IMG/VR virus record: IMGVR_UViG_3300043446_005775
Coordinates: 1-64,000 of that record
Length of the DNA stretch: 64,000 bases
From: a virus
Strand: one strand, 5' to 3'
Below the pieces are notes generated by a model. The model was not told the DNA's origin. It worked only from the letters and a program-made list of their open reading frames with translations, and made no database searches. How positions within the stretch are numbered: the first letter of the stretch is position 1; each line of letters opens with the position of its first letter. Of the stretch, positions 5 to 50,900 are shown piece after piece. The translations under genes were made by a program, and so were the position numbers.

Positions 5-3000
5 TTGAAAAGACCCGGGGAAATTGCTGCCGCGCTTTGCGCCGAACCACCAAGGGAGGCGATCAGCCTTGCTGTCACGCCATTGCAAGTGTCAAAGTCA
101 ACACATGTTGCCACAAAAGTAGCCGACTTTTTCGCTCCTGGCGAAAGGGGTGATGTGCGTCCGGTTCGTTTGGACACAGACAGCGAAACTGGTGGCGTCG
201 GAATTCTGAACCCTGTTGCTGATCATTCTGTTCAGTATGAAGGAATTCCCTTGTCGCACGTACGGCGAGCGCATCTGTCTCGAAATCCCACTACTGGTGA
301 ATTGGAGTGGGTGAGAGGTGAGGCCAGGGGCCGTTTGCCAAAAGTCATTCATGGAACCCTCTTGCATCCTTTTGCTGCAGCAGATGCCATTGATGCCATT
401 CACGCAGGATCTTTTAAAGACGAAGACGGCAATTTGCACGAAAGTCATGTTGCAAGCGCATCCCCAACGGGAATAGTAAGCAGACCTGCCAGCAGCGACG
501 AGCGTTTTTCTGGGGCAGACATCAGCAGTGTTCGCACAAACGGCCTGCTTGAAATTCACGGATTGCCGTTGTTCCATGGGATTCTTGCGGGATCAAATGC
601 ACACGATACAACAGGAGTAGGCGCAGAAAATTCCTATTACGATGAATGGGTAAAACAAGTTCAGGCAACAAATCCCGGGCAATTGAGTGGCGAAGCATTG
701 CTTGGTCGTCATGGTCGCTCATTGTACGCCACTCCGCCTGTTGTGGCGTTTGAAAGACCTTTGAACAGGGAGATTTCCAGACTCAGGCAAAGGCTTGCGT
801 TTCTGCAATCAAAAACAACAAAACTGACCGCAGAAGGCAGAATGGAGATGCGAAGCCTGGAGGAGGAGTTGAGGAGCAAAGAGCAGCTCATGCAAAAAAT
901 ACGGATCCCTGATTCCGCATCTGCGATGGCTGACGACTCTGATCTTGGGCAAAGTTTTTTTGGAATAGCTCCGACTCTTCGTGGGGGAATGGCTCCCATG
1001 TATGGAAAGCCTTCAAATCCTCTTCGTATCGAAGACCTGACGAGAACCGTTTCCGCAACTGGTGGTGATCGTCCATATCTGACAAGAGGGATGGGATTGT
1101 TTGTCGATCCATCGAAACATGCAGGTCACTACGCGCAAGTGGTTCGCGCCATGACCGTCCCCACCGTCGGTGTTGGAGGAGGATTGAGATCGCCAAATAG
1201 GCCGTTCAGCGTAATTCCCACGCGAGTCAGGGTTCATACATCAGTAGAGCCAAACACCCGCATGATTCCCGGTCTTCCAAACATTCCCTTGCGAAATGTT
1301 GCCGCACTTTACCCGACAATACGAGGACTTGTTCAAGGACAGGTATTTTTTTCCGATGAGGACGGCGTTCCCACCTATGTGACGGCAGCGGACAATGGGC
1401 CTGTTCTTTATAATCCACGCGCGGAAACACGGGCAAGCCTTGTGGCTGATGGCCTTCCCATGTATGAGCATTGGGGATATGCATACACAAAATCCGGAAC
1501 TGGCCACACCTTGGAACTCACTCGGCTTCAAGACTTGAAAGCACGTAGCGAGATAGATCCCGCAGTCAAATTCACCGATAGTGATCGGCAAAAATTGGTG
1601 AAATTACAAGAAGAGGTTGATGTTCGCAGGAAAGCATCAGATCTGTTTGGATACAATTCTGACACGCGCCCGAAAATTCCGGGAGTCCCAAATCAGTATG
1701 GGCATCCAACCATTGGCGAAGGACCAATTGCAAGAAGGGCGATTCCTGGTCTTGATCCCAATGCGGAAGTTTCAAAGACTCGTGCAGTATTCGATCCGTT
1801 GCAGATAGGTACGGCTGACCGGCCTTCATATATTTCCTTGAGCATGATTCCGGCTCAATCCTTGGACAACATCAGCAATACACGCGAGTCTCCATACTTG
1901 AGGGTGCTGCATGATCACGACGGTGTTCCTGATGAGGTCGTGCGCATTCCTGATCGTGGAACAACCACCAAAAGATTGTCTCCTGATGAGTTGACATCAG
2001 AGGAACTCGCAAAAAAGTCATTTCGTGCCGTTGTTTCGTCCGTGGGGACAAGTCGTTATCGCGTGGCAATGCTCTTGCCGTCAACGGCAAAGCATCCTGT
2101 GATATCAACCTATAATGTGAGATATTCCCCGCAAACAATGTCTTATCGGGCACCAGCAGGAGCGCCAAATTTGCTTGGACAAATACTTGGTTCTGTTTCA
2201 GAGGAAAATAACAGGAGAATAAGCCAGAATGTTGATCAGGCAAGAATATTCGAAGAATTATTTGCGGCGCGAGATTCTGATACAGGAAGAATTTTCCAGC
2301 AAGTCATTGATTCTTCGAACAATCCTTTTGCAATGCATGCAAACTTGCCATTATTTGAACCTGTATGGGACGCTGAAGGAAACCCGATACCGGGAGCGTA
2401 CCGGCAAAGCTTGCAAGCTTCGTATGTGTCACGTCCTCTTCCCGGAATAAGCGCTGCTGAAGCAGCAAGGGCTGGCCTCCAGCCCATTTACCAGCCGCCT
2501 GAAGGAAATATTCCTCCGATTTTATTGGATGACCCATACTCGCCCATGAGTCCTGACGGAACAAGATCAGCAAGGGGGTTGGCAGTATATCGACTGAATT
2601 CTGACACCGAAAATGGAATGCAGCTTCTGTTTCCGCAAAATGCCAACGCATATTTTGGCGTATATGACGGCCAGCTTCGTCCGGAATCTCGGCGAGAAAC
2701 ATACACATATGTCAATGATACGATTCGGGCAGCTCCGGTTCGACAAAGCAAGGAAGGATCTGATTCGACCATAGACAAGCATGCAGCCATTGAACTAAGC
2801 AGGAGATTATATTACAGGCGAAGAAATTCTGCAGAATTGGCATCGGGACAATACAAGATAATTCCGGTGTTCGAGCATGATACACAGCCATCAAAAAAGT
2901 CAAATGCACTCATGATGCGTGGATGGCAAAGCGAATTGATGGATGGCGTTTCTTCTCATCTTGAAACGGTTGAGAATCCTTCAAAAGAATATGTCGAAAA

Positions 3001-25726: not shown

Positions 25727-26392
25727 ATGAGCAACAAGGAATTAGGCAGCAAAGGATATGGTCACTGGATGTTCCTTCCCGGAGGGCAGCTGTCTTATGT
25801 GGGAGGAGCAATGACCGCACTTCACCCTCATTATGAAATCAGGAAGACAAAGCACAAAGTCAAGAAAATAACAAAAGCCAAGATGCATGAACTGGAATCA
25901 AATCATGATCACCAGATGATCATCGTTGGGGACAGCAGCGTTCCTCACAATGATCTTCTCGGATTGACTGAGGCGATCAAGAAAATATTGCGATCAAGCA
26001 TGAATATAAAAAGGGGATCTTCCAGGCATGGAGATGAGCATGACATGGCATTTGGAAGCACATCCATCTTTGCCAACACAAGCAGGGACGCAGACGGCAT
26101 GAATTTCGTCATCATTGATGGAAACGGACACCCGGTCATGGTTACCAGGCGCGAAAGCAATCATCGTGATCCAACAGCTTCGTTGCTTAACGATGTTGCC
26201 GAATATCTTGCGCACGAACACCACAGACTTGCATGGCACATTCATGACAAGGATGACAATGAGATAAACGGCGCACCTGATCACATATTGCCAAACATGT
26301 CTGCGTTGCGTTGCTGGCCAGTGCATGCGTCACAGATGATTTTTCGCTGTCCACCGCTGATCGACACGGATCCCGAGGAAAGCGATGAATAG
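25727..26392 (+). CDS. His-rich hypothetical protein (221 aa)
   Basis: Tightly packed: 3 nt after the previous stop and overlapping the next start. Confidence 0.75.
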   Translation: MSNKELGSKGYGHWMFLPGGQLSYVGGAMTALHPHYEIRKTKHKVKKITKAKMHELESNHDHQMIIVGDSSVPHNDLLGLTEAIKKILRSSMNIKRGSSRHGDEHDMAFGSTSIFANTSRDADGMNFVIIDGNGHPVMVTRRESNHRDPTASLLNDVAEYLAHEHHRLAWHIHDKDDNEINGAPDHILPNMSALRCWPVHASQMIFRCPPLIDTDPEESDE

Positions 26393-29300
26393 GATAGTAA
26401 AATCGATCATTGAAATAAGTGATCTTCCTGATGATGAAGAGAGTGATTCGTCAAAAAAACAACCGGCAAGCGACTATCATCATCTCTGGTCCAAGAATAC
26501 TGCAGCGTTCATGGGCATACCGATTGACGAGATATTGCCAGATTGCGTCTCGACAAGCGACAAGATAGCCGCCATGGATCGCTCGTTCATGAACGAGTTT
26601 CATGGGATTCTCAGCCAATCAAGGCAGTCATTCCAGATGATTGATTTGCTCGGGAAAAAAATCCTTTCCTATTCCAAACTATACTGCTATGCCGGGAAGA
26701 AGATACTTCGCGCGGACGACATGCGCATGATGATCGATGTGTTTGCCCGGTCATTTGGCCCAGAAGAGATGAAGACCTTGGCAAAGCTGATGCGCACGAC
26801 CTACAAGGGCATCAAGAGGGAAATGGACAGCCTTCGCGTGTCCAAAAAGCTTGATTTCCCGTATCGTCATCCTTCGCTGTCCATTCATGAGGATTCCATA
26901 TATCCGCACGGACAAGGATCCTACGGCCAGTCGCATTCGTGGGTCTACGGAAAACAATCCTATGTGGAATATACGAATATTATGGCAAAGCCTGAAGGCA
27001 AGGCAATACATCCATTCCTGCTCATAGAAATGCATCTGTCCAAGACTGGCAACAATGGGCTTTCTGTGGAAAGCGGCATCATCGGCCAATCGTTCTCGAT
27101 TGACGGATCAGGAAATATCGAGAAAAACACAAGCAACACGTTATCCTATGCATGGCAGGATTATCTTGAGGAACACATGAAGTCGACATCCTCATGGGCG
27201 CAAAGCACGAGCAAGGATGGAATCAAGAAAGCCTCGATAGAAATTGCGCACCCAAAAGTGGGAATACCATGGTTTTCCGCGGTTGAAACTTCCATGGACA
27301 GCCAATTGATGTTTGATACCGAGAAAAACATGCAGATATTCTTGGGCAAGAGAAAAAAGATCGGGCATCTGACGTATGCCGACACCGCGAACGATGATGC
27401 TGAAAGCCGGTCAAGGCGCCTGCTGGAGTTTCTTGGCAGGTACATCGCATCGGAAATAGTCGCGTATGGCTATGCTTCCCACGCCGGAATGTCCACCCCT
27501 CATTGTTGCGAAGTCCCACCAAACGGTAACCCGTGGTTGTCGTTCCGGGTGTCCGGAAGAATAAGCTCGGTTCCCTCAATCAGTACTGGGCAGTCTGCAT
27601 ATCCGGACAACTACTTGAGCCTGCCGAATGATTCCGAAGACCAAACCAATGGTTATTCGCCCATGCGGGTTGACTGGACACAATTTCAAAAGGAAACGTA
27701 TCACATCGTGGTGCAACCGAGCGTGACAAGATTCATGCATGACGCATTCAATTATCATGTCGATGTGCGAATCTTGCCGAACGGGTCCGGCGCTGCTGTC
27801 GTCCTGTTTTCTGATTCCTTCAATTTCATTGACGAAATGCGCGTCACCATGCCCGATCCGGATCGCGCAACCGTTATTGGCCAGGTGGCGTTGGCAAATG
27901 CGGTTGGAATCCGGAACTCGCCAACCTACGATGATCTTGGATGCAAGGTGCTCCCGGTTCCCATCGCTCTCTCAGAACAACGGACTGCATCAAGATCCTC
28001 ATTTTCCGTTGGCGCCGAACTCTCCGTTTTTGAATCCATGCCTCGTGATTTCATCTCCTATCATATCAATTCCGCATCAACCGTCATGTACAAGACTTCC
28101 GACATGTCGCAGCTGCGCGGAAACATCACGAACGCATTGAAGATGTTCAATACGAGAACCATTGACCAGAATAATCTGAGCAGCTTTATTTCCTGGAATG
28201 ATTTCGGTTCGTATTGCGGAGAGCATTTCATTGAAAATTTCAATGATTCATTCATGAAATCTGCGCATGCCTATTTTACTCCTGCCTCCTTGCAAAGTCT
28301 CCTGAAATCAATGCAGCAGTATTTTTCCGCGCATCAATTGAATGATTTTGGAATACATGACATTCCGGAGGTAAAGGAAAAAAACGAGAATACTTTTGTA
28401 AGCCTTTCACCAAAGACGTTGCTGAAGACATCATCACTGAGCAATGGACTGTCCTATGCTGTCTATCTTGTGCGCCATGTCCCGCATCAATCCGTGACCG
28501 AGTCCATGATCCCGATTGAAAAAACGATGTTCAATTCACTGTTCTCCTTCTACATGACATGTGTGAATCCCAATGGACATGAAATTTGCGTCTATCAGCC
28601 ATCCTTCAACATGAAGGCTGGAAATTATCCGCGCTATGCCTCTCTCGCAGACATTGTATGCGGGTATTTCCCGGACTTCATTTGCTGGATGACAAATGAG
28701 GGGTTGCGACTGCACAAGTCAAGCCAGATCTCCTCCGCTTCCTATGCAAGAATTGCAGAGATGCATAAGGTTGATCCAGCATCCGTTGCGAAGGATATTG
28801 AGATGCCCTTTTCCCCTGATGCATCCATGATCAGCGGCCAGAAGGAGATAGTCAGAAGATGGATTACTTATCATTTCCCGTCATTGGCAATCATTAACCA
28901 AGGCGGACCTCGCAAGGGAGGCTCCATAGTGGATCATCTCATGGAATCGGCGCTTGCCGTAGACACGCCAAGGGGGAAGGACAACTACAGCCCTTCGGAA
29001 AGCCTGAATGATGAAAATGTTGCACGGCTGCTGAGACTTGCAATGCTCCTCCACGATGTTGGGAGAAGCTTTCCGAGCGAAGGCGGTGTTGGCCCGGTGG
29101 AAAAGGGGCATGCGCACTATTCCGCGGCGCTTGCCAGAACCATCCTTTCCCAGTTCTATCTCAAGGAACGGGAAATCGCGGCAATAGAGAAGTGGATCTA
29201 TCATCATGACATCTTCGAAAAAGCAGTCATGGGCGCATATGGAACGATTGATGAGGCATCCCTTCATATCGCAAAAATTGCCGAGACCATAGACGACGCA

Positions 29301-30323
29301 GAGATTCTTTATCATGTCTATCGTTGCGACACGGATTTCCTCGGCAATTACCAGACAGCGGCAAGCATTCGCAGGGATGCCGGGAAACCGCTTCTCGATG
29401 CTGGCGACATACTGGATCGCGCGATCCAGTATATCACGTCAAGTACGCTGTCAAAGGTCTCTCTTCAAAGAAAGAGAGTCTCAAGGACATTCCAGGATGT
29501 GGGAACTTTCTGGTCTGATATTGCCCCCAAGGATACCAACTCGGAGAAAGTCATCAGGTCGCTAAGAATTGGTAGCGACTATGAAATTTCATCCCGACCG
29601 ATAAACAGAACCGCATTCTCGCCTGAATATCTCCTGAAGGCAGAGGCAATCATCAAGGATGTGAACAAGAATACCGATGCGTCATTTGCCAGAGCCTTTG
29701 GGATGTCCTATGATGGAAACACGGGAAGGATAGCGCGGTGCTTCCACTGGGCAAGCATCGATACGGTGCAGACCATATTCCTTGAGGGGATGATGCCATA
29801 CGCATCCATTGATGGAAGAAGCATTTACGCTTCGGTCAACTCTGCATCGCCGCTTCCTGTTCCGCTCTATAACGATGATTACGTGGCTCTTGTCGTCTTC
29901 GATTACCATTGTGGCAATATCATCTCAAAGAAATCCCTTGAGCTCCTCAGCAAGCAATACGTGCAGTGGAAGAAAGCGAAATTGGGAACGTCCGTGTTTT
30001 CCCTGAGCCGCGATGAAAATGACTTGATTGATAACGCAAAAGTGGGGCTTGACCTCGGCTATGCATCCTCCCTTGATTCTCATGCAGGGAAAAAGATACT
30101 TTGCTGCTTCGACACAAACAGGATTGCGCTCATCACGGCAATGGCCGTTCCGATGAAAGTCGCGACAAAAGACCTGTCGCCAAGCTTCAAAGGCTCTCCC
30201 CTGGATTTTTATGGTCGCGCCCATACTGGTCAATTCCGCAAGATCGCCTTGCCTGAATTGTCCTATGAAGATTTGAAAATAGAAGAAGCGAATGATCTTT
30301 GGTTAGGTGACATCAATGAATGA
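26385..30323 (+). CDS. 1312 aa protein with HD phosphohydrolase domain and C-terminal degenerate PARP-like ART fold
   Basis: HD domain (28920-29335): IVDH..LAMLLHDVGR..GHAHYSA..IYHHD..CD. ART-like region (29730-30135): CFHWAS..VQTIFLEG..DGRSIYAS..VVFDYHCG..LGYASS..CCFDTNRI. Confidence 0.85.
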   Translation: MNRIVKSIIEISDLPDDEESDSSKKQPASDYHHLWSKNTAAFMGIPIDEILPDCVSTSDKIAAMDRSFMNEFHGILSQSRQSFQMIDLLGKKILSYSKLYCYAGKKILRADDMRMMIDVFARSFGPEEMKTLAKLMRTTYKGIKREMDSLRVSKKLDFPYRHPSLSIHEDSIYPHGQGSYGQSHSWVYGKQSYVEYTNIMAKPEGKAIHPFLLIEMHLSKTGNNGLSVESGIIGQSFSIDGSGNIEKNTSNTLSYAWQDYLEEHMKSTSSWAQSTSKDGIKKASIEIAHPKVGIPWFSAVETSMDSQLMFDTEKNMQIFLGKRKKIGHLTYADTANDDAESRSRRLLEFLGRYIASEIVAYGYASHAGMSTPHCCEVPPNGNPWLSFRVSGRISSVPSISTGQSAYPDNYLSLPNDSEDQTNGYSPMRVDWTQFQKETYHIVVQPSVTRFMHDAFNYHVDVRILPNGSGAAVVLFSDSFNFIDEMRVTMPDPDRATVIGQVALANAVGIRNSPTYDDLGCKVLPVPIALSEQRTASRSSFSVGAELSVFESMPRDFISYHINSASTVMYKTSDMSQLRGNITNALKMFNTRTIDQNNLSSFISWNDFGSYCGEHFIENFNDSFMKSAHAYFTPASLQSLLKSMQQYFSAHQLNDFGIHDIPEVKEKNENTFVSLSPKTLLKTSSLSNGLSYAVYLVRHVPHQSVTESMIPIEKTMFNSLFSFYMTCVNPNGHEICVYQPSFNMKAGNYPRYASLADIVCGYFPDFICWMTNEGLRLHKSSQISSASYARIAEMHKVDPASVAKDIEMPFSPDASMISGQKEIVRRWITYHFPSLAIINQGGPRKGGSIVDHLMESALAVDTPRGKDNYSPSESLNDENVARLLRLAMLLHDVGRSFPSEGGVGPVEKGHAHYSAALARTILSQFYLKEREIAAIEKWIYHHDIFEKAVMGAYGTIDEASLHIAKIAETIDDAEILYHVYRCDTDFLGNYQTAASIRRDAGKPLLDAGDILDRAIQYITSSTLSKVSLQRKRVSRTFQDVGTFWSDIAPKDTNSEKVIRSLRIGSDYEISSRPINRTAFSPEYLLKAEAIIKDVNKNTDASFARAFGMSYDGNTGRIARCFHWASIDTVQTIFLEGMMPYASIDGRSIYASVNSASPLPVPLYNDDYVALVVFDYHCGNIISKKSLELLSKQYVQWKKAKLGTSVFSLSRDENDLIDNAKVGLDLGYASSLDSHAGKKILCCFDTNRIALITAMAVPMKVATKDLSPSFKGSPLDFYGRAHTGQFRKIALPELSYEDLKIEEANDLWLGDINE

Positions 30324-30978
30324 TAGGATGGAACGCTATGTCAATGATGACAAGTCCGCATTGATTGAGAAATACTCATCAATGATTCCCGTGAATATCA
30401 TGAACAGAAGCAAGGATTCATCCACCTACACCATCCTGTTGGGAATAGAGCGGCTTGATCTCCCTAAACTGACATCGGGCGATGCCGTTGTTTGGTGGTA
30501 TTGCATCCAGCTGAAGACGTGCAAGACGTGCGTCTTTCTTTCGGAAAAACAAAAGGAATTCCCGTATCAGATGTGCAACAATCCGAAGATATCCATTCGC
30601 CTGTTTGAAATCATTTCACGAAGCATGTCGACTTGTGATGAGTGGCATGCGGGGTTTTCTGAAGAGCGCATCGAAAGCGAACGATCAATGGGATATTCGG
30701 AGAACCTTTACGTTCTTGCGGCATTGATCAAGATGGGCCTCCGAGACATGCCGAAAAATATTCCCATACCTGCAATTGGAGCGGTAAAAATGTTACAGTT
30801 TTCCATAGAGCTTGCCGCTGCCGCGGACATCCATAACGCCATTGTTCATGAATACGTACAATTGTGTGTCTTGAAGCGATCTGGACATGATATTGACGAT
30901 GAATATTTTTCCGTTGTTTCACAAAGGGAATTGCCCTTGATACAAGGGAATAAATTCAATACCAATCTGCTACTATGA
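30316..30978 (+). CDS. Hypothetical protein with four-Cys cluster (possible Zn/Fe-S site)
   Basis: CKTC..MCNNP..TCDEW; the ATG at 30316 follows AGGTG and overlaps the upstream gene end. Confidence 0.75.
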   Translation: MNDRMERYVNDDKSALIEKYSSMIPVNIMNRSKDSSTYTILLGIERLDLPKLTSGDAVVWWYCIQLKTCKTCVFLSEKQKEFPYQMCNNPKISIRLFEIISRSMSTCDEWHAGFSEERIESERSMGYSENLYVLAALIKMGLRDMPKNIPIPAIGAVKMLQFSIELAAAADIHNAIVHEYVQLCVLKRSGHDIDDEYFSVVSQRELPLIQGNKFNTNLLL

Positions 30979-36544: not shown

Positions 36545-36562
36545 TTGTGCAAGGAGAAAGCA

Positions 36563-37213
36563 ATGGCATCGCTAGAACACAACATGTCGAAGTTGAAGGT
36601 CAAGGAAAAGGCAGAGAAGCTGGGCGTTGACCGGGCTGTGGCGTCCCATAGCGGCGGCCGTCGTTCTTCCAGGAAATCCTTTCAGGCAGTGCTGTATCCA
36701 AAAACTGCATCAAGGAACACGACCATTGAGCAGCGGGTGCGAAGCCTGCAGAAATCCGTGCAGAATACGGCCGGAATAGGGCGCATCATGGAGAACATCG
36801 CCGACATCGTCGGTTCTTCGTTCAACTCTCCGATGCCGATGCCCATGACAAGTGATGGGTCTCCTGATTGGGACGGCCCGAATGAGAACAGTTTTGTCAT
36901 GATGCCAATCAACAACAAGAAGTCGAGCTTGCATGGAAGATTCGTGATTCTTCAGAAGCTGCCAAATGGAATGTACAAGATTGCTGAAAAGCCCTCTGGC
37001 AAGAAGAAGAAGGCCAAGGATGACGATGACGATGATGATCGTGACAATCGTGACAATGATGAGGGAAAAGTCAGCAAGGGGATCATCACGGGTTCCCGGC
37101 AACAACGACGTGACAAGGGTGCCACACATCACTGGGCGCCGAGGGGTGTTTCCTCCCGCAGCCCAAGAACGGCAGGAAGGGGCCCCAAGGGGTCGAAGAG
37201 TGGGGCGCTCTGA
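36563..37213 (+). CDS. Basic, disordered hypothetical protein (candidate internal head protein)
   Basis: AAGGAG RBS before ATG 36563; SRKSF, LQKSV, KKSSL and VSKG motifs, plus poly-D and basic tracts. Confidence 0.75.
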   Translation: MASLEHNMSKLKVKEKAEKLGVDRAVASHSGGRRSSRKSFQAVLYPKTASRNTTIEQRVRSLQKSVQNTAGIGRIMENIADIVGSSFNSPMPMPMTSDGSPDWDGPNENSFVMMPINNKKSSLHGRFVILQKLPNGMYKIAEKPSGKKKKAKDDDDDDDRDNRDNDEGKVSKGIITGSRQQRRDKGATHHWAPRGVSSRSPRTAGRGPKGSKSGAL

Positions 37214-37812
37214 TGCGCACCAGCAGGAAAGTCGGAGCGAGGAATGCCCCCGCCCTGACGCCGACTGGCTTGCGCAAATCATCTTCGGGAAATGGCGGCC
37301 CCAATGCCGAGAAAAGTCACGGCATCCCAACTGCGCTCCGCAGGGAAAAGTCTGGCCCAGCAGCGCAAAAGGCGACCAATATCGAAAACCAATTTCGATA
37401 TGCGCTGCTTAGGAAAGGATTGGACTTCATCGAGCAAGCGAACATTGGCCCGTGGTCCTGCGATTTTCTCCTGCCCGATCACAAGATTGTCATCGAAGCT
37501 GATGGTGAATACTGGCATTCGATTCCGAAAACCATCATGAAGGACAGGAGGAAAGATCTCTGGTTACGATCAAAAGGCTATTCGGTCTTGCACTTTGAAG
37601 GAAAACGCATATCTGCAGATCCGGATGGCTGCATAAGCAAAGTGATACAATTGATAGAAAAGAATAAACTTTCCCTTGTGATTGAAGAAGAAGAAGAAGA
37701 AGAATTCATGGAAAAGCCGGAAATAGCCATAGCAAAGGAAACCGACGACGATGCAGAATACGAAGCTTGGCTCTCTTCCGGATCTGTCGGATCACGAGGA
37801 AGCCTTGGTTAA
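37213..37812 (+). CDS. DUF559 / Vsr-like PD-(D/E)xK endonuclease
   Basis: TNIE..EQANIGPWSCDF..IVIEADGEYWH..KDRRKDLWLRSKGYSVLHF; TGATG coupling to the upstream gene. Confidence 0.9.
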   Translation: MRTSRKVGARNAPALTPTGLRKSSSGNGGPNAEKSHGIPTALRREKSGPAAQKATNIENQFRYALLRKGLDFIEQANIGPWSCDFLLPDHKIVIEADGEYWHSIPKTIMKDRRKDLWLRSKGYSVLHFEGKRISADPDGCISKVIQLIEKNKLSLVIEEEEEEEFMEKPEIAIAKETDDDAEYEAWLSSGSVGSRGSLG

Positions 37813-40978: not shown

Positions 40979-41959
40979 ATGAATCAAGCAGATACCATAA
41001 GACAACATAGAAAAAGCCTTGCAGAAATGGATGGCGTAAGCGCAACCTTCGAGGTTCCGCTTACGTACATCAAGTCCTTTGTTGGGAACTACACCACATC
41101 AATGGGCGAGGTCAAGAAGGGTCGCATCATTGAAGGCATCGCTTCCACTGAGGACAAGGACCAGCAGGGAGAGATCGTGGTTCAGGACAAGATGGATTGT
41201 TCCTACTTGCTTGAAAAGGGGTTTTTGAATTGGAATCATTCGCATGCACCGGAAGACCAGATCGGAAAGCCCTTGGAGGTCATCAAGCTGGCTGGCGGCC
41301 CATCGACCCCGAATGGGTTGCCGTGCACGTTCTTCCGGGCGTTGCTCTTCGAGAGCATGCCACGAGCTGAAGCGGTGTGGACATTGAGCAAGGCTCTGGA
41401 GGATTCAGCCGGGGTTGGCCAGGACAGGTATCTTGGGTTCTCCGTGGAAGGCGGTGTCCGGGTACGCCACAACAATATCCTGATGGAGACCATGGTCAGG
41501 CACATGGCCGCCACGCATGAGCCGGTGAATGCCCAGGCAGTTGCCCGTTGTGTCCTGGCGAAAAGCCAAGGTTTCAAGGTCGAGGAGAATGTGCTGATTG
41601 ACACGCTTGATGATAATGTCCCGCATTTCATCTTCAAGAGTTTTTCGCAACTCTCGAAATCCCTTCTGCTTGCCAAGAATGTTTCCGCGGAAGTTTCTTC
41701 CCATGCGACACTTGCGGAGATGTCTCCTCTTCGGCGCGAATTTCTGAGCCGCAAGGGGAGCAAGCATCGGAAGTCTTTTGCGGACGTTCTCTATGGGGAT
41801 TGTGCTCACGGAAACAGATGCAAGTCTGGAGACACATTCAAGAAAGGCTATCAGGGTGCACTGGATCATCTGGTGTACTGTGGAGGCATGCAACCTGCAG
41901 AAGCGGCAAAATCACTCTTGTCGCATATACGTATGTTAAAATCAAATCAGAATCTTTAA
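40979..41959 (+). CDS. Prohead (maturation) protease, SPO1/Twort-like
   Basis: IEGIAST..DQQGE..GFLNWNH (His)..IGKP..LGFSVEG (Ser)..ATHEPVN; lies upstream of scaffold and capsid genes. Confidence 0.92.
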   Translation: MNQADTIRQHRKSLAEMDGVSATFEVPLTYIKSFVGNYTTSMGEVKKGRIIEGIASTEDKDQQGEIVVQDKMDCSYLLEKGFLNWNHSHAPEDQIGKPLEVIKLAGGPSTPNGLPCTFFRALLFESMPRAEAVWTLSKALEDSAGVGQDRYLGFSVEGGVRVRHNNILMETMVRHMAATHEPVNAQAVARCVLAKSQGFKVEENVLIDTLDDNVPHFIFKSFSQLSKSLLLAKNVSAEVSSHATLAEMSPLRREFLSRKGSKHRKSFADVLYGDCAHGNRCKSGDTFKKGYQGALDHLVYCGGMQPAEAAKSLLSHIRMLKSNQNL

Positions 41960-43540: not shown

Positions 43541-45469
43541 ATGGCACTTTTGACAGAGTTCCCTTCGGGGTACAAAAAGCCGGAGCCGCTTAACAAGTCG
43601 TTTGACATGATTGTTCGCGACTGGAGTCGGCAGCAGTTCGGAGGCGACGACATCGTCGACGAGATTCGCAAGGCGCTCAGCACAGGCGTTGCTTCCCAGA
43701 TCACCGCTGGCGGCGCGGTTACCGCTGGCAACAACAATCCGGGCGAGACCACTGCGTTGCGTCTTGAGAACCTCGACAATACCATGACGAGCGTCTTGGC
43801 GACCGCGGAGCATCTCAAGATTTTCCGCTGGCTTCACAAGGAGCCCAGCAAGCAGCCGTTCTATCAGTGGAACCGTCGCGAGTCGTATGGCTCGACAAGA
43901 GGGTTCTTCGGATTTCAGGAAGGCGGGTTACCCAACGGCGGCAAGGGTCAGTGGTCAAGAAATGGTGCGTACGTCAAGTTCCTTGGTACCAAGGGCGGGG
44001 TAACCCATCCTGCGGTGCTGACGAACATCCTCGGTGGCATGTCGGTTGACCCGGTTGCCGAAGATCAGCTTGGCCGTACCATGGACTTCATGCAGCGCAT
44101 CGAAAGAGCCGTCATGTATGGCGACGAGGATATCTACGATGTTTCGGGCTCTGATGCGAACTACGACGGAATCCTGAAGCAGCTTACGCAGAAGCGCTCG
44201 AAGAACATCATCGACCTTGAAGGCAAGCCGCTCACGCTCGACGTGATCGCGAATGTCGCGTCGCGACTGGTCAGCGAAGGCAAGCTTCTTTCCTTCAACG
44301 ACATCTCGCTCTTCATGAGCCCCCAGAACATCGAGGACTTCGGCAAGCTGCGGTACTCGACCATTCTTGGCACCAACAATGAGCCCGGAGGCCCTGGTAC
44401 GCGCGTGGACCGTGCTGACCTGACCACCTCGGCTCGCAACAACCTCATCGCCGGTCTGTCCATCGTTGGACAGGCGACATCGTTCGGCGTGATTCCGTTC
44501 GAGTGGTCGATTTTCACCGAACCGGTCGAAGGCAGCGATCCGCTGGTAACCGGAGATCCTTCCGCTCCCGCTGCGCCGCTCAACAATTCGCCGCTGTATG
44601 CGAATCGTCTATCCACGCAGATCACAAGCGCCAGTAATGTCGCCTCTGACCTGGATTCTGCCGTTGCAGTCGTTTCGAAGAGAGTGAGCGGAACGGTTAC
44701 CACGTCGCTGAGCGCCACGTATTACAGACGCGACCAGGCTCCCGGGAGTGCCATGATCAACGGGACTCGTGACGGCACAGGATACAGCAGCGCCACCTCC
44801 TTGAGCACTCCTTCTGAAACCACCACGGTAACGAGCTATTCCGATAGCGGCGGAACACCGTACATCAACGAAGGAAGAATCTGCCACAATATCACCGTCG
44901 CTGCTGCATCAAGCAAGCATGATGCGTCTGATACCACATTCTACTGGTACCGTGCATCGTCGGTCAACGACAATGGCGAGTCCGCTGCCTCGTATGTCTC
45001 TTCTGGAGCGGTAAGCCCATCGAAGGATTATGTCGTGAAGTTCCTCATCCCACGTGTTCAGGGAACCGGTCTCGCCGCTGCCCGTGCGTACCGGATCTAC
45101 CGCTTGGCATCCACCGTCGAGAATCCAACTTACCAGCCTTCGCTTTCTTCGACCACCGTTGGAGTTGGAACAGCTGGATGGCAGTTTGTCGGATATGTCG
45201 CAGATCCCGGCGTTGGTGACTGGGTCGAGTTCACGGACTCGAACGGAGCCTCTTCGGACTACACCAACTTCCGGCCGGGCACCAACATCGCCCCGTTGCT
45301 TTGCCGTAACAGTGCTGACCTGTGCGTCGCGCAGATGTCGCCGCTGCTCAAGATGCCGCTTGCCCCGACAAGCACAACCTTTGAGTATCTGCTGCTTCTG
45401 TACCATACGCTGGTCCTCAAGGCACCGGAGCGTCAGTTCATCTTCAAGAATGTCGGCAAGCTGAACTAA
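43541..45469 (+). CDS. Major capsid protein (SPO1/Twort-like HK97 fold) with enlarged beta-sandwich insertion
   Basis: EIRKALSTG..TALRLENLD..FQEGG..IERAVMYGD..YDGIL..IIDLEG..QMSPLLKMPLA..LLYHTLVLKAPER..IFKNVG; strong RBS. Confidence 0.92.
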   Translation: MALLTEFPSGYKKPEPLNKSFDMIVRDWSRQQFGGDDIVDEIRKALSTGVASQITAGGAVTAGNNNPGETTALRLENLDNTMTSVLATAEHLKIFRWLHKEPSKQPFYQWNRRESYGSTRGFFGFQEGGLPNGGKGQWSRNGAYVKFLGTKGGVTHPAVLTNILGGMSVDPVAEDQLGRTMDFMQRIERAVMYGDEDIYDVSGSDANYDGILKQLTQKRSKNIIDLEGKPLTLDVIANVASRLVSEGKLLSFNDISLFMSPQNIEDFGKLRYSTILGTNNEPGGPGTRVDRADLTTSARNNLIAGLSIVGQATSFGVIPFEWSIFTEPVEGSDPLVTGDPSAPAAPLNNSPLYANRLSTQITSASNVASDLDSAVAVVSKRVSGTVTTSLSATYYRRDQAPGSAMINGTRDGTGYSSATSLSTPSETTTVTSYSDSGGTPYINEGRICHNITVAAASSKHDASDTTFYWYRASSVNDNGESAASYVSSGAVSPSKDYVVKFLIPRVQGTGLAAARAYRIYRLASTVENPTYQPSLSSTTVGVGTAGWQFVGYVADPGVGDWVEFTDSNGASSDYTNFRPGTNIAPLLCRNSADLCVAQMSPLLKMPLAPTSTTFEYLLLLYHTLVLKAPERQFIFKNVGKLN

Positions 45470-47768: not shown

Positions 47769-50700
47769 ATGTCTGTTGCTTTTAATGGTGTGGTGCTCGT
47801 TGCTCCAGGAGTCGCTTCGTATATCGACGATTCAGCCTCCAGCAGTTCTCCCACAACGTCTGCGAATGCGATTGCGATTCTTGGAGAGGCAGAACGCGGA
47901 GAAACCGGACAGCCGGTCGTGTTCACTGATTCCTCGACGGTACGTGCCTACTATGGCACAAGCAGCGTCGATCTGCCGCTTATTTATGGCATTACAAGAG
48001 CCATGAATGCCGGGGCATCCCGTGTCTACGGATTACGGGTTGGCAATGCCACGAAGGCATCCGTGTCCATCACCTCTGGAACACGAAACATTATCTCCCT
48101 TGTTGCCAAGGAGTGGGGAAACACTGGCAACTCATGGAATCTTGAGATAAGCACAAATCCTTCTGATTCGATGGCAAAGGACATCAAGCTGACGCTGCAT
48201 GATGGCCGCATCTACAAGCAATCCAAGATTGGGAAGAATGTTGCTCAAATCGAGTACTATTCGCCAATTTATTCCTTGGGATCGGGCGAGATTTTCCAGG
48301 TGACTTCCGGAACATACGGTGGGGTTACTGCCACGGTGCAGGCTCCGCTCTATGATTTTCGTGGCTTTGCCGTGGATGGCGTTGCTGAGGGATCGGTGCT
48401 CTCGGGCGGTGGCGCAATCACCGATGCCGGTTCGTTTGGGGCAGGCCGGTGCGTGGCCCTCTCGGTTGTTTCGCCAGTAGGGACATCGAATGCCGAACGG
48501 GGCCATATCTACTTCCAGAGCGATGACGCTACCGTGGCTGGTGCGCCACGCACTGGCAATATCGGAGGGGATGCTGCGTTCCCTGTCAGGGCGCAGACAA
48601 CGACCAAGAAGAACTTGTCCGGCGCGTATCTCTGGCAGCCAACTGCGCAGATCATTGCGGTCAACCAGGTTCCGACTCTTGTCCTGAAGTCTCCGGATTC
48701 CACCAAGAATGACGTGTATATTCCCTTGCAACCATACGACACGCTGGCGAAATTGTCCGCAAGAGTCAATCAGTATTACTCCCTTTCGAGGGCGGGTAGT
48801 GCGGCTGTTCCTGCAATTTCCGCATCCGTCAACGGCGCTCCGAGCGCGACAACATTCGAGCGATTGGGATTGACAGAAGATTCCGGATCAGTCCAGTTTG
48901 GATTAACTGATCGTGATGGAGCAAATCGCACGACAATCAGTGTTCCTTACACCCGAATGGAAACAATTTCGGAGTTTATTGCCTCTGTCCAAGCGGATTT
49001 GAGAACCATCAACAACACAGGGCTTGTCGGGGCTGAATCCCTGTCGTTGGCGACAGCGGAATACCGGCAGGTGTCCGGGCAAATCACGGGCAATCTGGGA
49101 GCGGTAGCTTCGGCTGCCACGGGGACAATCGTTGCAACGTTGACGGGCCCCTCCGTTACCGGAGTTGCGTTCACTGGATCCGGATTTGTCAGCGGAGACC
49201 TGGCAACAATTACGTCGGGGTCTGCAAGTGCCGTGGTGAAGTTCACCTCATCAAGCGCCGCCACCGTTCAGACATCGACAACGGGATGGAGAGTCGCCGC
49301 AGGAACCGGCACCGGAGCGACGTTCACCACTACCGTCAATGGCCAGGGAGCCATCACGAGTGCCACCGTTACATTAGGATCAGCAGGATCAGGATATGCG
49401 GTAGGAGATGTGCTGGGTGTCGGAGGAGCAGGAACTTCGGGAACACTTACGGTTGCCACATTGGCGTCAGGAGGGAGCAACGGTCTCGGCGCAATTGCAA
49501 CGGTAACCATCTTGAATGCTGGAACTGGCTACATTGCCGGATCCAACGTGGCGACGACGTTCCTGACCGCTTCCCCGGGAAGCACGGTGTCCGTCCCTTC
49601 GCTTGCTGTGGTGCCAGTCAAGCCAATCATCGTGTTCAATACAGGTTCGCAAGCAAAGTTCTATTCAGTCATCCCTAGCTCAAACACGTTTCTCCCATTG
49701 ATCGGACTTGATGACGCGTCGACAAATGTAGGAGGATCAACCATTTCTGGCGTATCCTTCAACACGCCTGTCGTCAACTTTGTTGCGGCAAAGCCAGCGG
49801 TAAGCGCGAACGGATGGAAACTCAGCCTTGCGCCGGGAATGGCTGACGGGACGTTGTCCAGCTCAAAACTTGACATGTTTCCGATTCCCATTCCTGTATT
49901 CACGACTGCTGCCCTTCAGGATGATGCGACACTTTCGAAGACGTATTTCTCCGCAAATACGAATGCATTGGTTGAGGCCTTGAATGGAAGCACCTTCGGG
50001 GCACTTGTTGAGGCGACGAAGCTCTATAGTTCAGCGCGAATTGACAATGGCGTCTACGCATTCACCGGCGCTATCGAAACCCCTGTGGAGCCATCCCATT
50101 GGGATGATGCCTTGGCAAAACTGCAGCAAATTGAGGATCTTGAGATCATTGTCCCAATGACATCGAATGCCTCGATCCAGAGCGCAACCCTTGCCCATTG
50201 CCTGAGCATGTCCGGACCTGCCGGGAAGCGAGAGCGATTCGCAGTCTTTGGTGGTCCGCTGGGAATGTCCAACGCAGAAGTTTCGGCACTGGCGGCACAA
50301 TTCAACGACAAGCGAGCCGTCGTGGTGTGGCCTGGGATCAAGGATTACAACGATCAAGGCGACCTCATCACTTGGGCACCATACTTCGCTGCGGCGACCA
50401 TCGCCGGGCAGTTGGCTGCACAGTCGGATGTTGCCACACCGTTGACAAACAAGTCGGTGAGCATCCGTGGCCTTGAGACAATCCCGAGATTGACGGAAAT
50501 CGACGACCTTGTCAATGCTGGCGTCCTTGTCATCCGGTATGACTCGAACCGCGGCTATAGCGTGGCACAATCGTTGACTACATGGAGTGGCGATACCCGT
50601 TATGTGCGTCGCGAAATCTCGACAATGCGGAGTGCAGATCTTGTCATGCGACGAGTGCGCGGATCAATTGCAAACATCATCGGAAGCAAGTTGACTCCTA

Positions 50701-50900
50701 CGTTGATCAATACAATCAAGAGTCGAATCACGACACAACTTGAGATTTGCGAGAATGCCCAGCTTATCGTTGGCAACGCGCAGTTTCCGGCATACAAGGA
50801 CATCCTCATCCGTGCGGTCGGAGATGCGGTATACGCGGAATTCTCGATCAGCCCTGCGATCCCGGCAAATTACCTGCTGATTACCGCGCACATCATGTAA
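47769..50900 (+). CDS. Tail sheath protein with large insertions (1043 aa)
   Basis: N-terminal PGVASYID..ILGEAERGETG..; C-terminal HCLSMS..ER..AATIAG..PLTNK..LVNAGVL..QSLTT..EISTMR..PAIPANYLLIT. Confidence 0.93.
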   Translation: MSVAFNGVVLVAPGVASYIDDSASSSSPTTSANAIAILGEAERGETGQPVVFTDSSTVRAYYGTSSVDLPLIYGITRAMNAGASRVYGLRVGNATKASVSITSGTRNIISLVAKEWGNTGNSWNLEISTNPSDSMAKDIKLTLHDGRIYKQSKIGKNVAQIEYYSPIYSLGSGEIFQVTSGTYGGVTATVQAPLYDFRGFAVDGVAEGSVLSGGGAITDAGSFGAGRCVALSVVSPVGTSNAERGHIYFQSDDATVAGAPRTGNIGGDAAFPVRAQTTTKKNLSGAYLWQPTAQIIAVNQVPTLVLKSPDSTKNDVYIPLQPYDTLAKLSARVNQYYSLSRAGSAAVPAISASVNGAPSATTFERLGLTEDSGSVQFGLTDRDGANRTTISVPYTRMETISEFIASVQADLRTINNTGLVGAESLSLATAEYRQVSGQITGNLGAVASAATGTIVATLTGPSVTGVAFTGSGFVSGDLATITSGSASAVVKFTSSSAATVQTSTTGWRVAAGTGTGATFTTTVNGQGAITSATVTLGSAGSGYAVGDVLGVGGAGTSGTLTVATLASGGSNGLGAIATVTILNAGTGYIAGSNVATTFLTASPGSTVSVPSLAVVPVKPIIVFNTGSQAKFYSVIPSSNTFLPLIGLDDASTNVGGSTISGVSFNTPVVNFVAAKPAVSANGWKLSLAPGMADGTLSSSKLDMFPIPIPVFTTAALQDDATLSKTYFSANTNALVEALNGSTFGALVEATKLYSSARIDNGVYAFTGAIETPVEPSHWDDALAKLQQIEDLEIIVPMTSNASIQSATLAHCLSMSGPAGKRERFAVFGGPLGMSNAEVSALAAQFNDKRAVVVWPGIKDYNDQGDLITWAPYFAAATIAGQLAAQSDVATPLTNKSVSIRGLETIPRLTEIDDLVNAGVLVIRYDSNRGYSVAQSLTTWSGDTRYVRREISTMRSADLVMRRVRGSIANIIGSKLTPTLINTIKSRITTQLEICENAQLIVGNAQFPAYKDILIRAVGDAVYAEFSISPAIPANYLLITAHIM

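Follow-up and report, generated by a model that had tools for sequence, protein, structure and literature searches.

ADP-ribosylation and signals derived from nicotinamide adenine dinucleotide (NAD) are central to the conflict between phages and their hosts (Alt/Mod, DarTG, Thoeris). ADP-ribosyltransferases (ARTs) are the commonest protein-modifying domains of the polyvalent proteins that phages inject (PMC5512222, PMC9503650, PMC7824862). One of them is ART-PolyVal (PF18760), an ART of the H-Y-D type that is found in polyvalent proteins of phages and of conjugative elements (Iyer et al. 2017, PMC5512222). The MuF domain is a marker of polyvalent proteins that are packaged in the head and injected (PMC5512222, PMC9503650). 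In the SidE effectors of Legionella (SdeA), an HD-like phosphodiesterase (PDE) and a mono-ART (mART) are part of one injected protein, in which the PDE acts on the ADP-ribose that the ART has attached (PMC6941232). Here, we analyse a gene of the IMG/VR virus record IMGVR_UViG_3300043446_005775, which is located at 26385..30323 on the + strand of the window and codes for a protein of 1312 amino acids (aa) plus stop codon. The window is the whole analysed stretch of 64,000 nucleotides, a 64-kb part of a 77-kb viral contig that is estimated to be ~47% complete.

The C-terminal part of this protein was found to consist of an HD phosphohydrolase domain and a domain that very probably has an ART fold. 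The original prediction had concerned positions 28920-30135, corresponding to residues 846-1250 of the open reading frame (ORF), and had described an HD phosphohydrolase fused to a degenerate PARP-like ART. The peptide strings quoted there (FHWAS, VQTIFLEG, DGRSIYAS, GYASS and ILCCFDTNRI) are all present in the 1312-aa translation.

Module architecture and family

The HD domain and the ART-like domain are an obligate C-terminal module. In 21 of 21 full-length proteins with the ART-like domain, the HD domain is located 55-100 aa upstream of it, and the pair is always C-terminal. The regions preceding the pair vary and comprise MuF, kinase-like or ART-PolyVal domains, an 825-aa region, or almost nothing. 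We regard the obligate pairing as the strongest clue to function.

Full-length homologues of the window protein (1314-1316 aa) are encoded by four other metagenomic phage contigs, in a conserved gene order, and share 46-61% identity with it over the whole length. When 1.84 billion representatives were searched exhaustively with a profile, only 14 clusters were found, which shows the family to be rare; a further seeded search added five more proteins. Neither megablast nor tblastn with P0001, P0016 and P0024 gave a match in cultured phages, no relatives were found in the bacterial genome contigs searched, and no additional viral loci were found with P0016, P0008 and alignment A5. The HD-ART-like family is rare, unannotated and known from metagenomes only.

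Its members fall into two branches. Branch B contains the window protein, the orthologues of 1314-1316 aa, an HD-ART protein of 534 aa and relatives of 1358-1374 aa. Branch A (P0014-P0024) contains proteins of 633-788 aa, which are barely more than the HD-ART module, proteins of ~1100-1350 aa and two MuF polyvalent proteins. One of the latter, P0018 (2356 aa), carries a MuF domain, a canonical ART-PolyVal domain (residues 1109-1273) and the HD-ART-like module (1875-2356); two ART-fold families thus coexist in a single polyvalent protein. The other, P0014 (1896 aa), has a stretch resembling PI3/PI4 kinases (E 1.4e-4) besides its MuF domain and the HD-ART-like module. The tblastn match to a 61%-identical metagenomic relative (contig L005, 2260-6242) begins at 2260 and the frame that holds the C-terminus begins at 2634 (1203 aa), which suggests a frame break or a sequencing error in the N-terminal region of this copy.

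Fold of the ART-like domain

The PARP-like ART-fold domain comprises aa 1075-1312 (29607..30320, + strand), as delineated from an AlphaFold (AF2) model, Foldseek, VIA-align, site tables and hhalign. A linker that is poorly conserved in alignment A1 and in MAFFT alignments (aa 1007-1074, 29403..29606, + strand) separates it from the HD domain. When aa 1030-1312 were compared with Pfam, no family was matched at E<=10, PARP and ART-PolyVal (PF18760) included. The ART-like domain had no match in PHROGs or among PDB sequences, either with the protein itself or with the profiles A1 and A3, and PADLOC returned only weak Cas3-HD matches.

Structure prediction was more informative. With an 18-sequence alignment spanning both branches, residues 1075-1312 were modelled by AF2 with a predicted local distance difference test score (pLDDT) of 85.8 and a predicted template modelling score (pTM) of 0.85. 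Distant homologues were needed for this result, as an alignment of five close sequences gave an unusable model (pLDDT 35). The top matches found by Foldseek in the PDB were all PARP catalytic or pseudo-PARP domains (PARP10, RCD1, PARP14, PARP4, PARP13 and TASOR), with a best E value of 2.6e-3 (PARP10, 3hkv), probabilities of up to 1.00 and template modelling (TM) scores of 0.3-0.45. In a search of 48,161 representative chains with VIA-align, which is independent of Foldseek, the ART superfamily accounted for ~45 of the 50 matches listed (Z 7.5-4.2), including SAIP, PARP13, RCD1, exotoxin A, PARP1-3, tankyrase, diphtheria toxin, cholix toxin, MbcT, DarT, Tpt1, ParT and RES. A second VIA-align search gave 403 chains at Z>=5; the best 50 of the 403 were all PARP or exotoxin A domains, with RCD1 (5ngo, Z 7.8) and PARP13 (2x5y, Z 7.6) at the top. 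Fold matches in BFVD comprised PolyVal ARTs, phage MuF fusions and viral PARP-domain proteins.

Profile comparison with hhalign aligned branch A with the ART-PolyVal domain of P0018 over VYHGT...YGxGxY (E 1.7e-4); the profile of the full family gave an insignificant match to the same domain in local mode (E 0.095). P0014 showed a weak match to Pfam PARP (E 0.12) over the same stretch as the branch A motifs. Atlas features of the C-terminal part pointed weakly (0.81-0.84) to exotoxin A, PARP and Arr; these leads are consistent with the fold and are not evidence alone.

The uniformity of the match lists together with the motifs of branch A, and not one strong match, leads us to conclude with high confidence that the C-terminal domain has an ART fold. 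The original prediction had made its PARP-like pattern dependent on the C-terminal region modelling as such a fold. According to AF2, Foldseek and VIA-align the region does so, and the confident model, the near-exclusive ART-fold matches and the canonical motifs in distant homologues show that the pattern is not due to chance.

One fold match was to chain 9k3a_B of the pre-ejectosome of cyanophage A4 (Z 6.7, 152 residues). The paper on the A4 pre-ejectosome names lytic transglycosylase and M23 peptidase domains only, plus an unassigned alpha+beta domain in gp28 (PMC12002296). Judging from the fold match, this alpha+beta domain may be ART-like.

Residues at the active-site positions

The ART-like domain starts with an N-terminal helix that is followed by the invariant loop SFARAFGMSYDGxTG. 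Strand 1 (IARCFHWA) places H1121 at the His position and W1122 at the Gly position of H-Y-E ARTs (codons 29745..29750, + strand), so that the Gly of the H-G dipeptide is replaced by a Trp, which is invariant in the branch B clade. Strand 2 (GRSIYASV) contains Y1148 within D-G-R-S-I-Y, and Y1162 is likely the second Tyr. Further landmarks are a VFDYHCG strand (D1173, H1175), a helical insert (aa 1182-1223), GYASS, ILCCFDTNR (D1243, R1246) and two extra C-terminal strands.

The position of the catalytic Glu is occupied by I1238 (codon 30096..30098, + strand), the counterpart of PARP1 E988 and PARP10 I987. Structural alignments of residues 3..185 of the model with PARP1 839..1009 and of residues 3..184 with PARP10 856..1007 place the Glu position at model residue 164, i.e. 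I1238; this residue was obtained by arithmetic on the alignment ranges and not from coordinates, and the register is good to ~2 residues. Ungapped pairing of EYIVYDIAQV with ILCCFDTNRI sets PARP1 D993 against the invariant D1243 and Q996 against the invariant R1246. The triad is thus read as H-Y-I in the window protein and as H-Y-(A/M/I/F) in branch A, and the catalytic-Glu position is hydrophobic throughout the family. The mapping proposed in the original prediction (FHW to HG[ST], GRSIYAS to GxGxY, ILCCFD to E-x-V-V-Y-D) is essentially right. The same is true for its observations that HGT is altered, Gly being replaced by the invariant Trp, and that the Glu position is hydrophobic, as the PARP1 and PARP10 alignment ranges confirm.

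As another candidate for the catalytic acid, the E/D of the E-V-H-T-G-R / V-F-D-Y-H strand was considered and rejected. Its location after strand 2 and before the helical insert, together with the PARP1 and PARP10 alignment ranges, identifies this strand as the L-x-G-E-V-x-L-G strand of PARPs, which is not the Glu-bearing one.

PARP10-type enzymes are active mono-ARTs with an H-Y-I/L triad, and a hydrophobic residue at the Glu position does therefore not imply inactivity. The first two positions are more telling. In H-Y-E ARTs, the backbone of the Gly that follows the strand-1 His binds nicotinamide; our guess is that W1122 fills the nicotinamide pocket. The residue after the His position is Trp in every branch B sequence. 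The His position itself is H in four branch B sequences, Q in two 46%-identical orthologues and L/Y/V/F/Y/L/Y in the rest. A Tyr at the Tyr position is found in the six closest sequences only, with I/H/H/F/F/Q/S in the rest. Both His and Tyr are retained by the window protein and its three closest relatives. In branch A, H-G-[TIAV] is present in 8 of 11 members and G-x-G-[IVM]-Y in 10 of 11, with the second Tyr ~13 residues further on. The strand-1 His is replaced by Arg in two members (among P0017, P0019 and P0024) and P0024 has neither His nor Tyr, indicating that the NAD signature decayed more than once in the family.

At the same time, no part of the protein is better conserved than the ART-like domain (54-75% identity, compared to 45-61% overall), and a set of polar and Gly residues is invariant in both branches (Y1109, G1111, T1113, G1114, N1152, H1175, G1177, D1243 and R1246). 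Decay of the triad in a highly conserved domain points to selection on something other than the classical NAD-transfer triad. Based on the invariant Trp in place of Gly and the lost constraint on His and Tyr, the transferase function has probably been lost or become vestigial in the branch B clade. The original prediction had proposed either a mono-ART or an NAD-binding pseudoenzyme beside a phosphoesterase; this is supported, with a pseudoenzyme that binds NAD or another ligand as the likelier of the two options.

The alternative is an active two-step enzyme, in which a host target is first marked by a PARP10-like mono-ART, after which the HD domain cuts the pyrophosphate or phosphodiester of the ADP-ribose, leaving or transferring a phosphoribosyl mark. 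The His and Tyr that the window protein shares with its three nearest relatives, a hydrophobic Glu position compatible with PARP10-type mono-ART activity, and the constant pairing in the order HD then ART are all in line with this alternative. It also has a precedent in SidE, where an mART is combined with an HD-resembling PDE that cleaves ADP-ribosylated ubiquitin (PMC6941232). For branch A, most members of which have H-G-x, G-x-G-x-Y and the second Tyr, it is the natural reading. In the clade of the window protein, however, a Trp that is invariant replaces the nicotinamide-binding Gly, and the His gives way to Gln in the 46%-identical orthologues. In the ~1360-aa members, the His position is occupied by L/Y/V/F and the Tyr position by I/H/F/Q/S in an otherwise conserved domain, which shows that the selected function does not need the triad. 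Moreover, the mART of SidE belongs to the R-S-E clade, which makes it an analogy and not a homologue. Taken together, we consider a two-step enzyme rather unlikely for the window protein.

HD domain

The HD metal-dependent phosphohydrolase domain comprises aa 826-1006 (28860..29402, + strand), based on the family hidden Markov model (HMM), Pfam HD, NCBIfam and motif conservation. Pfam HD (PF01966) matches residues 880-966 of the whole protein with 23.5 bits against a cut-off of 22 (E 7.4e-5), and the sub-region aa 841-1029 gave 27.2 bits (E 5e-6). The ligand set consists of H851, H890-D891, H909, H940-H941 and D982, with D984 in addition. All of these ligands were verified, in agreement with the intact set described in the original prediction, and the set, with the exception of H940, is kept in 16 aligned homologues.

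Among NCBIfam models, the HD domain of the family is nearest to GlnD, the CCA tRNA nucleotidyltransferase and HDIG, with E values of 2e-6 to 6e-5 for homologues and of 0.0045 for the window protein. The earlier assignment to the CCA-adding/GlnD-associated type therefore holds, the nearest sub-families being GlnD and the CCA enzyme (HDIG type). Characterised HD relatives of GlnD and CCA enzymes hydrolyse nucleotidyl phosphodiesters, 2',3'-cyclic phosphates and phosphomonoesters.

Another alternative is a role in the processing of RNA or DNA ends, in which an HD domain of the CCA type (2',3'-cyclic phosphodiesterase/phosphatase) works with an ART-fold domain that binds or modifies ends, and tRNA or incoming phage DNA is repaired or protected after attack by host nucleases. 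Tpt1/KptA and some PARPs bind or modify phosphorylated nucleic-acid ends, and Tpt1 and DarT are among the fold matches (Z 4.4-5.2). Homologue HD domains match CCA tRNA nucleotidyltransferase models (E 5.7e-5 and 4.3e-4), the family profile shows a weak match to the Aquifex poly(A) polymerase / A-adding enzyme (E 0.3), and the neighbouring giant protein has a DprA-like domain. Nevertheless, Tpt1 and DarT score below PARP and toxin domains, the R-H-R-R tetrad of Tpt1 is not apparent, a ligase or kinase partner was not found in the locus, and GlnD-type matches equal or exceed the CCA-type matches. End processing is, of the explanations weighed here, the one we consider most improbable.

Proposed function

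The protein reads best as a virion-associated effector in which catalysis falls to the HD domain and the ART-like domain is a repurposed binding module, an interpretation that we hold to be reasonably probable as a whole. It would be produced late together with the head proteins, become part of the contents of the head and enter the host along with the phage DNA; we infer packaging and injection from the position of the gene in the head module and from the MuF fusions of its relatives. With respect to the features of polyvalent proteins, the gene is located among giant multidomain ORFs, with the genes for head protease and major head protein following closely downstream, and MuF is found only in distant homologues. 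In the host, the HD domain would hydrolyse a nucleotide-type phosphoester. The ART-like domain presumably descends from a mono-ART-like family of the H-Y-hydrophobic type that lost constraint on His-Gly and Tyr in the clade of ~1300-aa proteins. It most likely acts as a binding or specificity module, presenting the substrate to the HD domain or gating it. Candidate ligands are molecules that resemble NAD or ADP-ribose, as well as targets that carry an ADP-ribosyl or nucleotidyl group.

Several observations weigh against this interpretation. The 1312-aa protein itself has no MuF domain. The activity of the HD domain is predicted from its motifs, and in the window sequence only, R894 replaces the usual Lys of HDxGK. 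Structural Z scores of at most 7.8 are middling by the scale of the tool. In addition, H1121, Y1148 and the hydrophobic I1238 retained by the window protein correspond to the triad of PARP10 and other active mono-ART PARPs, and residual transferase activity of this protein is conceivable on sequence grounds.

We also considered that the ART-like domain has only a structural place in an ejection protein or internal virion protein, without a ligand-related role, and that the HD domain acts alone or is a relic. The match of the ART-like domain to the A4 pre-ejectosome chain 9k3a_B (Z 6.7) suggests that such folds occur in ejection proteins, and the N-terminal 825 aa have no enzymatic signature. 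On the other hand, the ART-like domain is more strongly conserved than any other part of the protein (54-75% compared to 45-61% for the whole), it has invariant polar residues family-wide (Y1109, T1113, N1152, H1175, D1243 and R1246), and it is always tied to an HD domain with intact metal ligands. A functional site fits these features better than a scaffold does, and a purely structural role appears very unlikely.

As an extension of the effector interpretation, the HD-ART pair might be an obligate and hitherto undescribed effector module with which phages process ADP-ribose marks in two steps. The ART of the ancestral H-G-T branch would modify a host target with ADP-ribose, whose phosphodiester would be cleaved by the HD domain, as a phage counterpart of the SidE logic, whereas the ART-like domain in the branch of the window protein would be a reader that brings the HD domain to ADP-ribosylated or NAD-derived defence molecules (DarT-type DNA marks, Thoeris-type ADP-ribose signals). 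We regard this extension as unlikely. If true, it would describe a new kind of injected anti-defence eraser, complementing the NADAR domain of the neighbouring giant protein.

N-terminal region and genomic neighbourhood

The N-terminal ~825 aa (26385..28859, + strand) are conserved in alignment A1, with YPHGQGSYGQS and CEVPPNGNPW as strongly conserved motifs. No matches to this region were found in Pfam, PHROG or PDB sequences, and Atlas features of the N-terminal 840 aa gave nothing usable. Within residues 1-12 (26385-26420), K6-S7-x-I9 is invariant in 4 of 4 full-length homologues and the flanks are variable.

The gene is part of a run of ORFs on the same strand, between giant multidomain ORFs and in the head-gene region. 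The run starts with an ORF of >3965 aa, followed by an ORF of 4486 aa, one of 221 aa, the 1312-aa gene, one of 223 aa directly after it and an ORF of 1848 aa with pentapeptide repeats. The 4486-aa protein contains a NADAR domain (E 5.5e-10), as had been predicted, and a DprA-like SLOG domain (E 2.2e-6, just under the cut-off). The locus might accordingly be seen as a possible set of writer, reader and eraser functions for ADP-ribose chemistry. A Vsr/DUF559-type endonuclease (37213-37812; Pfam E 1.2e-11, PHROG annotated HNH endonuclease with E 4e-11) separates the block of giant proteins from the head genes. Downstream of it, the run continues with a virion structural protein and with the genes for the head maturation protease (40979-41959) and the major head protein (43541-45469), followed by a tail sheath of 1043 aa (47769-50900) and a VgrG-like spike. 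With sheath, spike and head genes downstream, the source is a large phage with a contractile tail, and the gene is part of a head-proximal block of giant multidomain proteins.

An ORF of ~220 aa follows each of three giant or large ORFs (25727-26392, 30307-30978 and 36545-37213). These three ORFs gave no significant family match in Pfam and PHROG scans. They were considered as paralogues, for example dedicated chaperones, and this was rejected because they are mutually unrelated, each matching only its own orthologue, which is present in the related contig L002. The gene order giant ORF, ~220-aa ORF, ~1315-aa ORF, ~220-aa ORF, giant ORF is kept in contigs L002 and L003.

Comparison with known systems

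The HD-ART module is not described in the publications on polyvalent proteins and viral NAD/ADP-ribose systems that were consulted (PMC5512222, PMC9503650, PMC7824862). It adds an ART-fold family that was missed by domain libraries and is invariably tied to an HD phosphoesterase. Judged by its motifs, branch A looks catalytically competent, whereas the NAD signature of branch B has decayed in a domain that is still highly conserved. The branches are therefore a natural pair for studying how an ART becomes a binding module and what role an HD domain has beside an ADP-ribose-handling fold. The interest would be modest if the module merely decorates a structural ejection protein.

With the HD domains of GlnD and the class II CCA-adding enzyme, which are the best sequence matches (E down to 2e-6), the HD domain of the family shares the pattern H...HD(V/I)GK...H...H(D)...D. 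It differs from them in scores far under the cut-offs of the full-length families and in lacking the accompanying nucleotidyltransferase domain.

ART-PolyVal belongs to the same superfamily and occurs in the same setting of large multidomain phage proteins, some of them with MuF, and its strand-1 and strand-2 motifs align with those of branch A. It is, however, a separate family: the PF18760 HMM has no match to the window domain, P0018 matches PF18760 elsewhere in its sequence, and no counterpart of the strand-5 Asp of ART-PolyVal was found at the equivalent position of the window domain.

The likeness to SidE is one of architecture and logic only. The mART of SidE is of the R-S-E clade, its PDE has an H-E-H set with a His intermediate and differs from canonical HD domains, which bind metal, and its target is eukaryotic ubiquitin. 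In contrast, the window protein combines classical HD metal ligands with a degenerate-looking ART-like domain of the H-Y-E lineage.

The best structural matches are mono-ART PARPs (PARP10, PARP14, PARP15 and PARP12) and pseudo-PARPs (PARP13/ZAP, plant RCD1/SRO1 and TASOR). These have the same fold, the same motif order (H-x-x, G-x-x-x-Y, V-x-x-G strand, [YF]-[DA]-S, hydrophobic-V-V-[YF]-D-x-x-[QR]) and a hydrophobic Glu position. The window domain differs from PARPs in the Trp that replaces Gly, a helical insert of ~40 aa, the N-terminal loop M-x-Y-D-G-x-T-G and the two extra C-terminal strands. It also has no detectable sequence similarity to Pfam PARP, is part of a phage protein and always has an HD domain in front. 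As a repurposed ART-like domain it would, by analogy, be comparable to the pseudo-PARPs PARP13/ZAP, RCD1 and TASOR.

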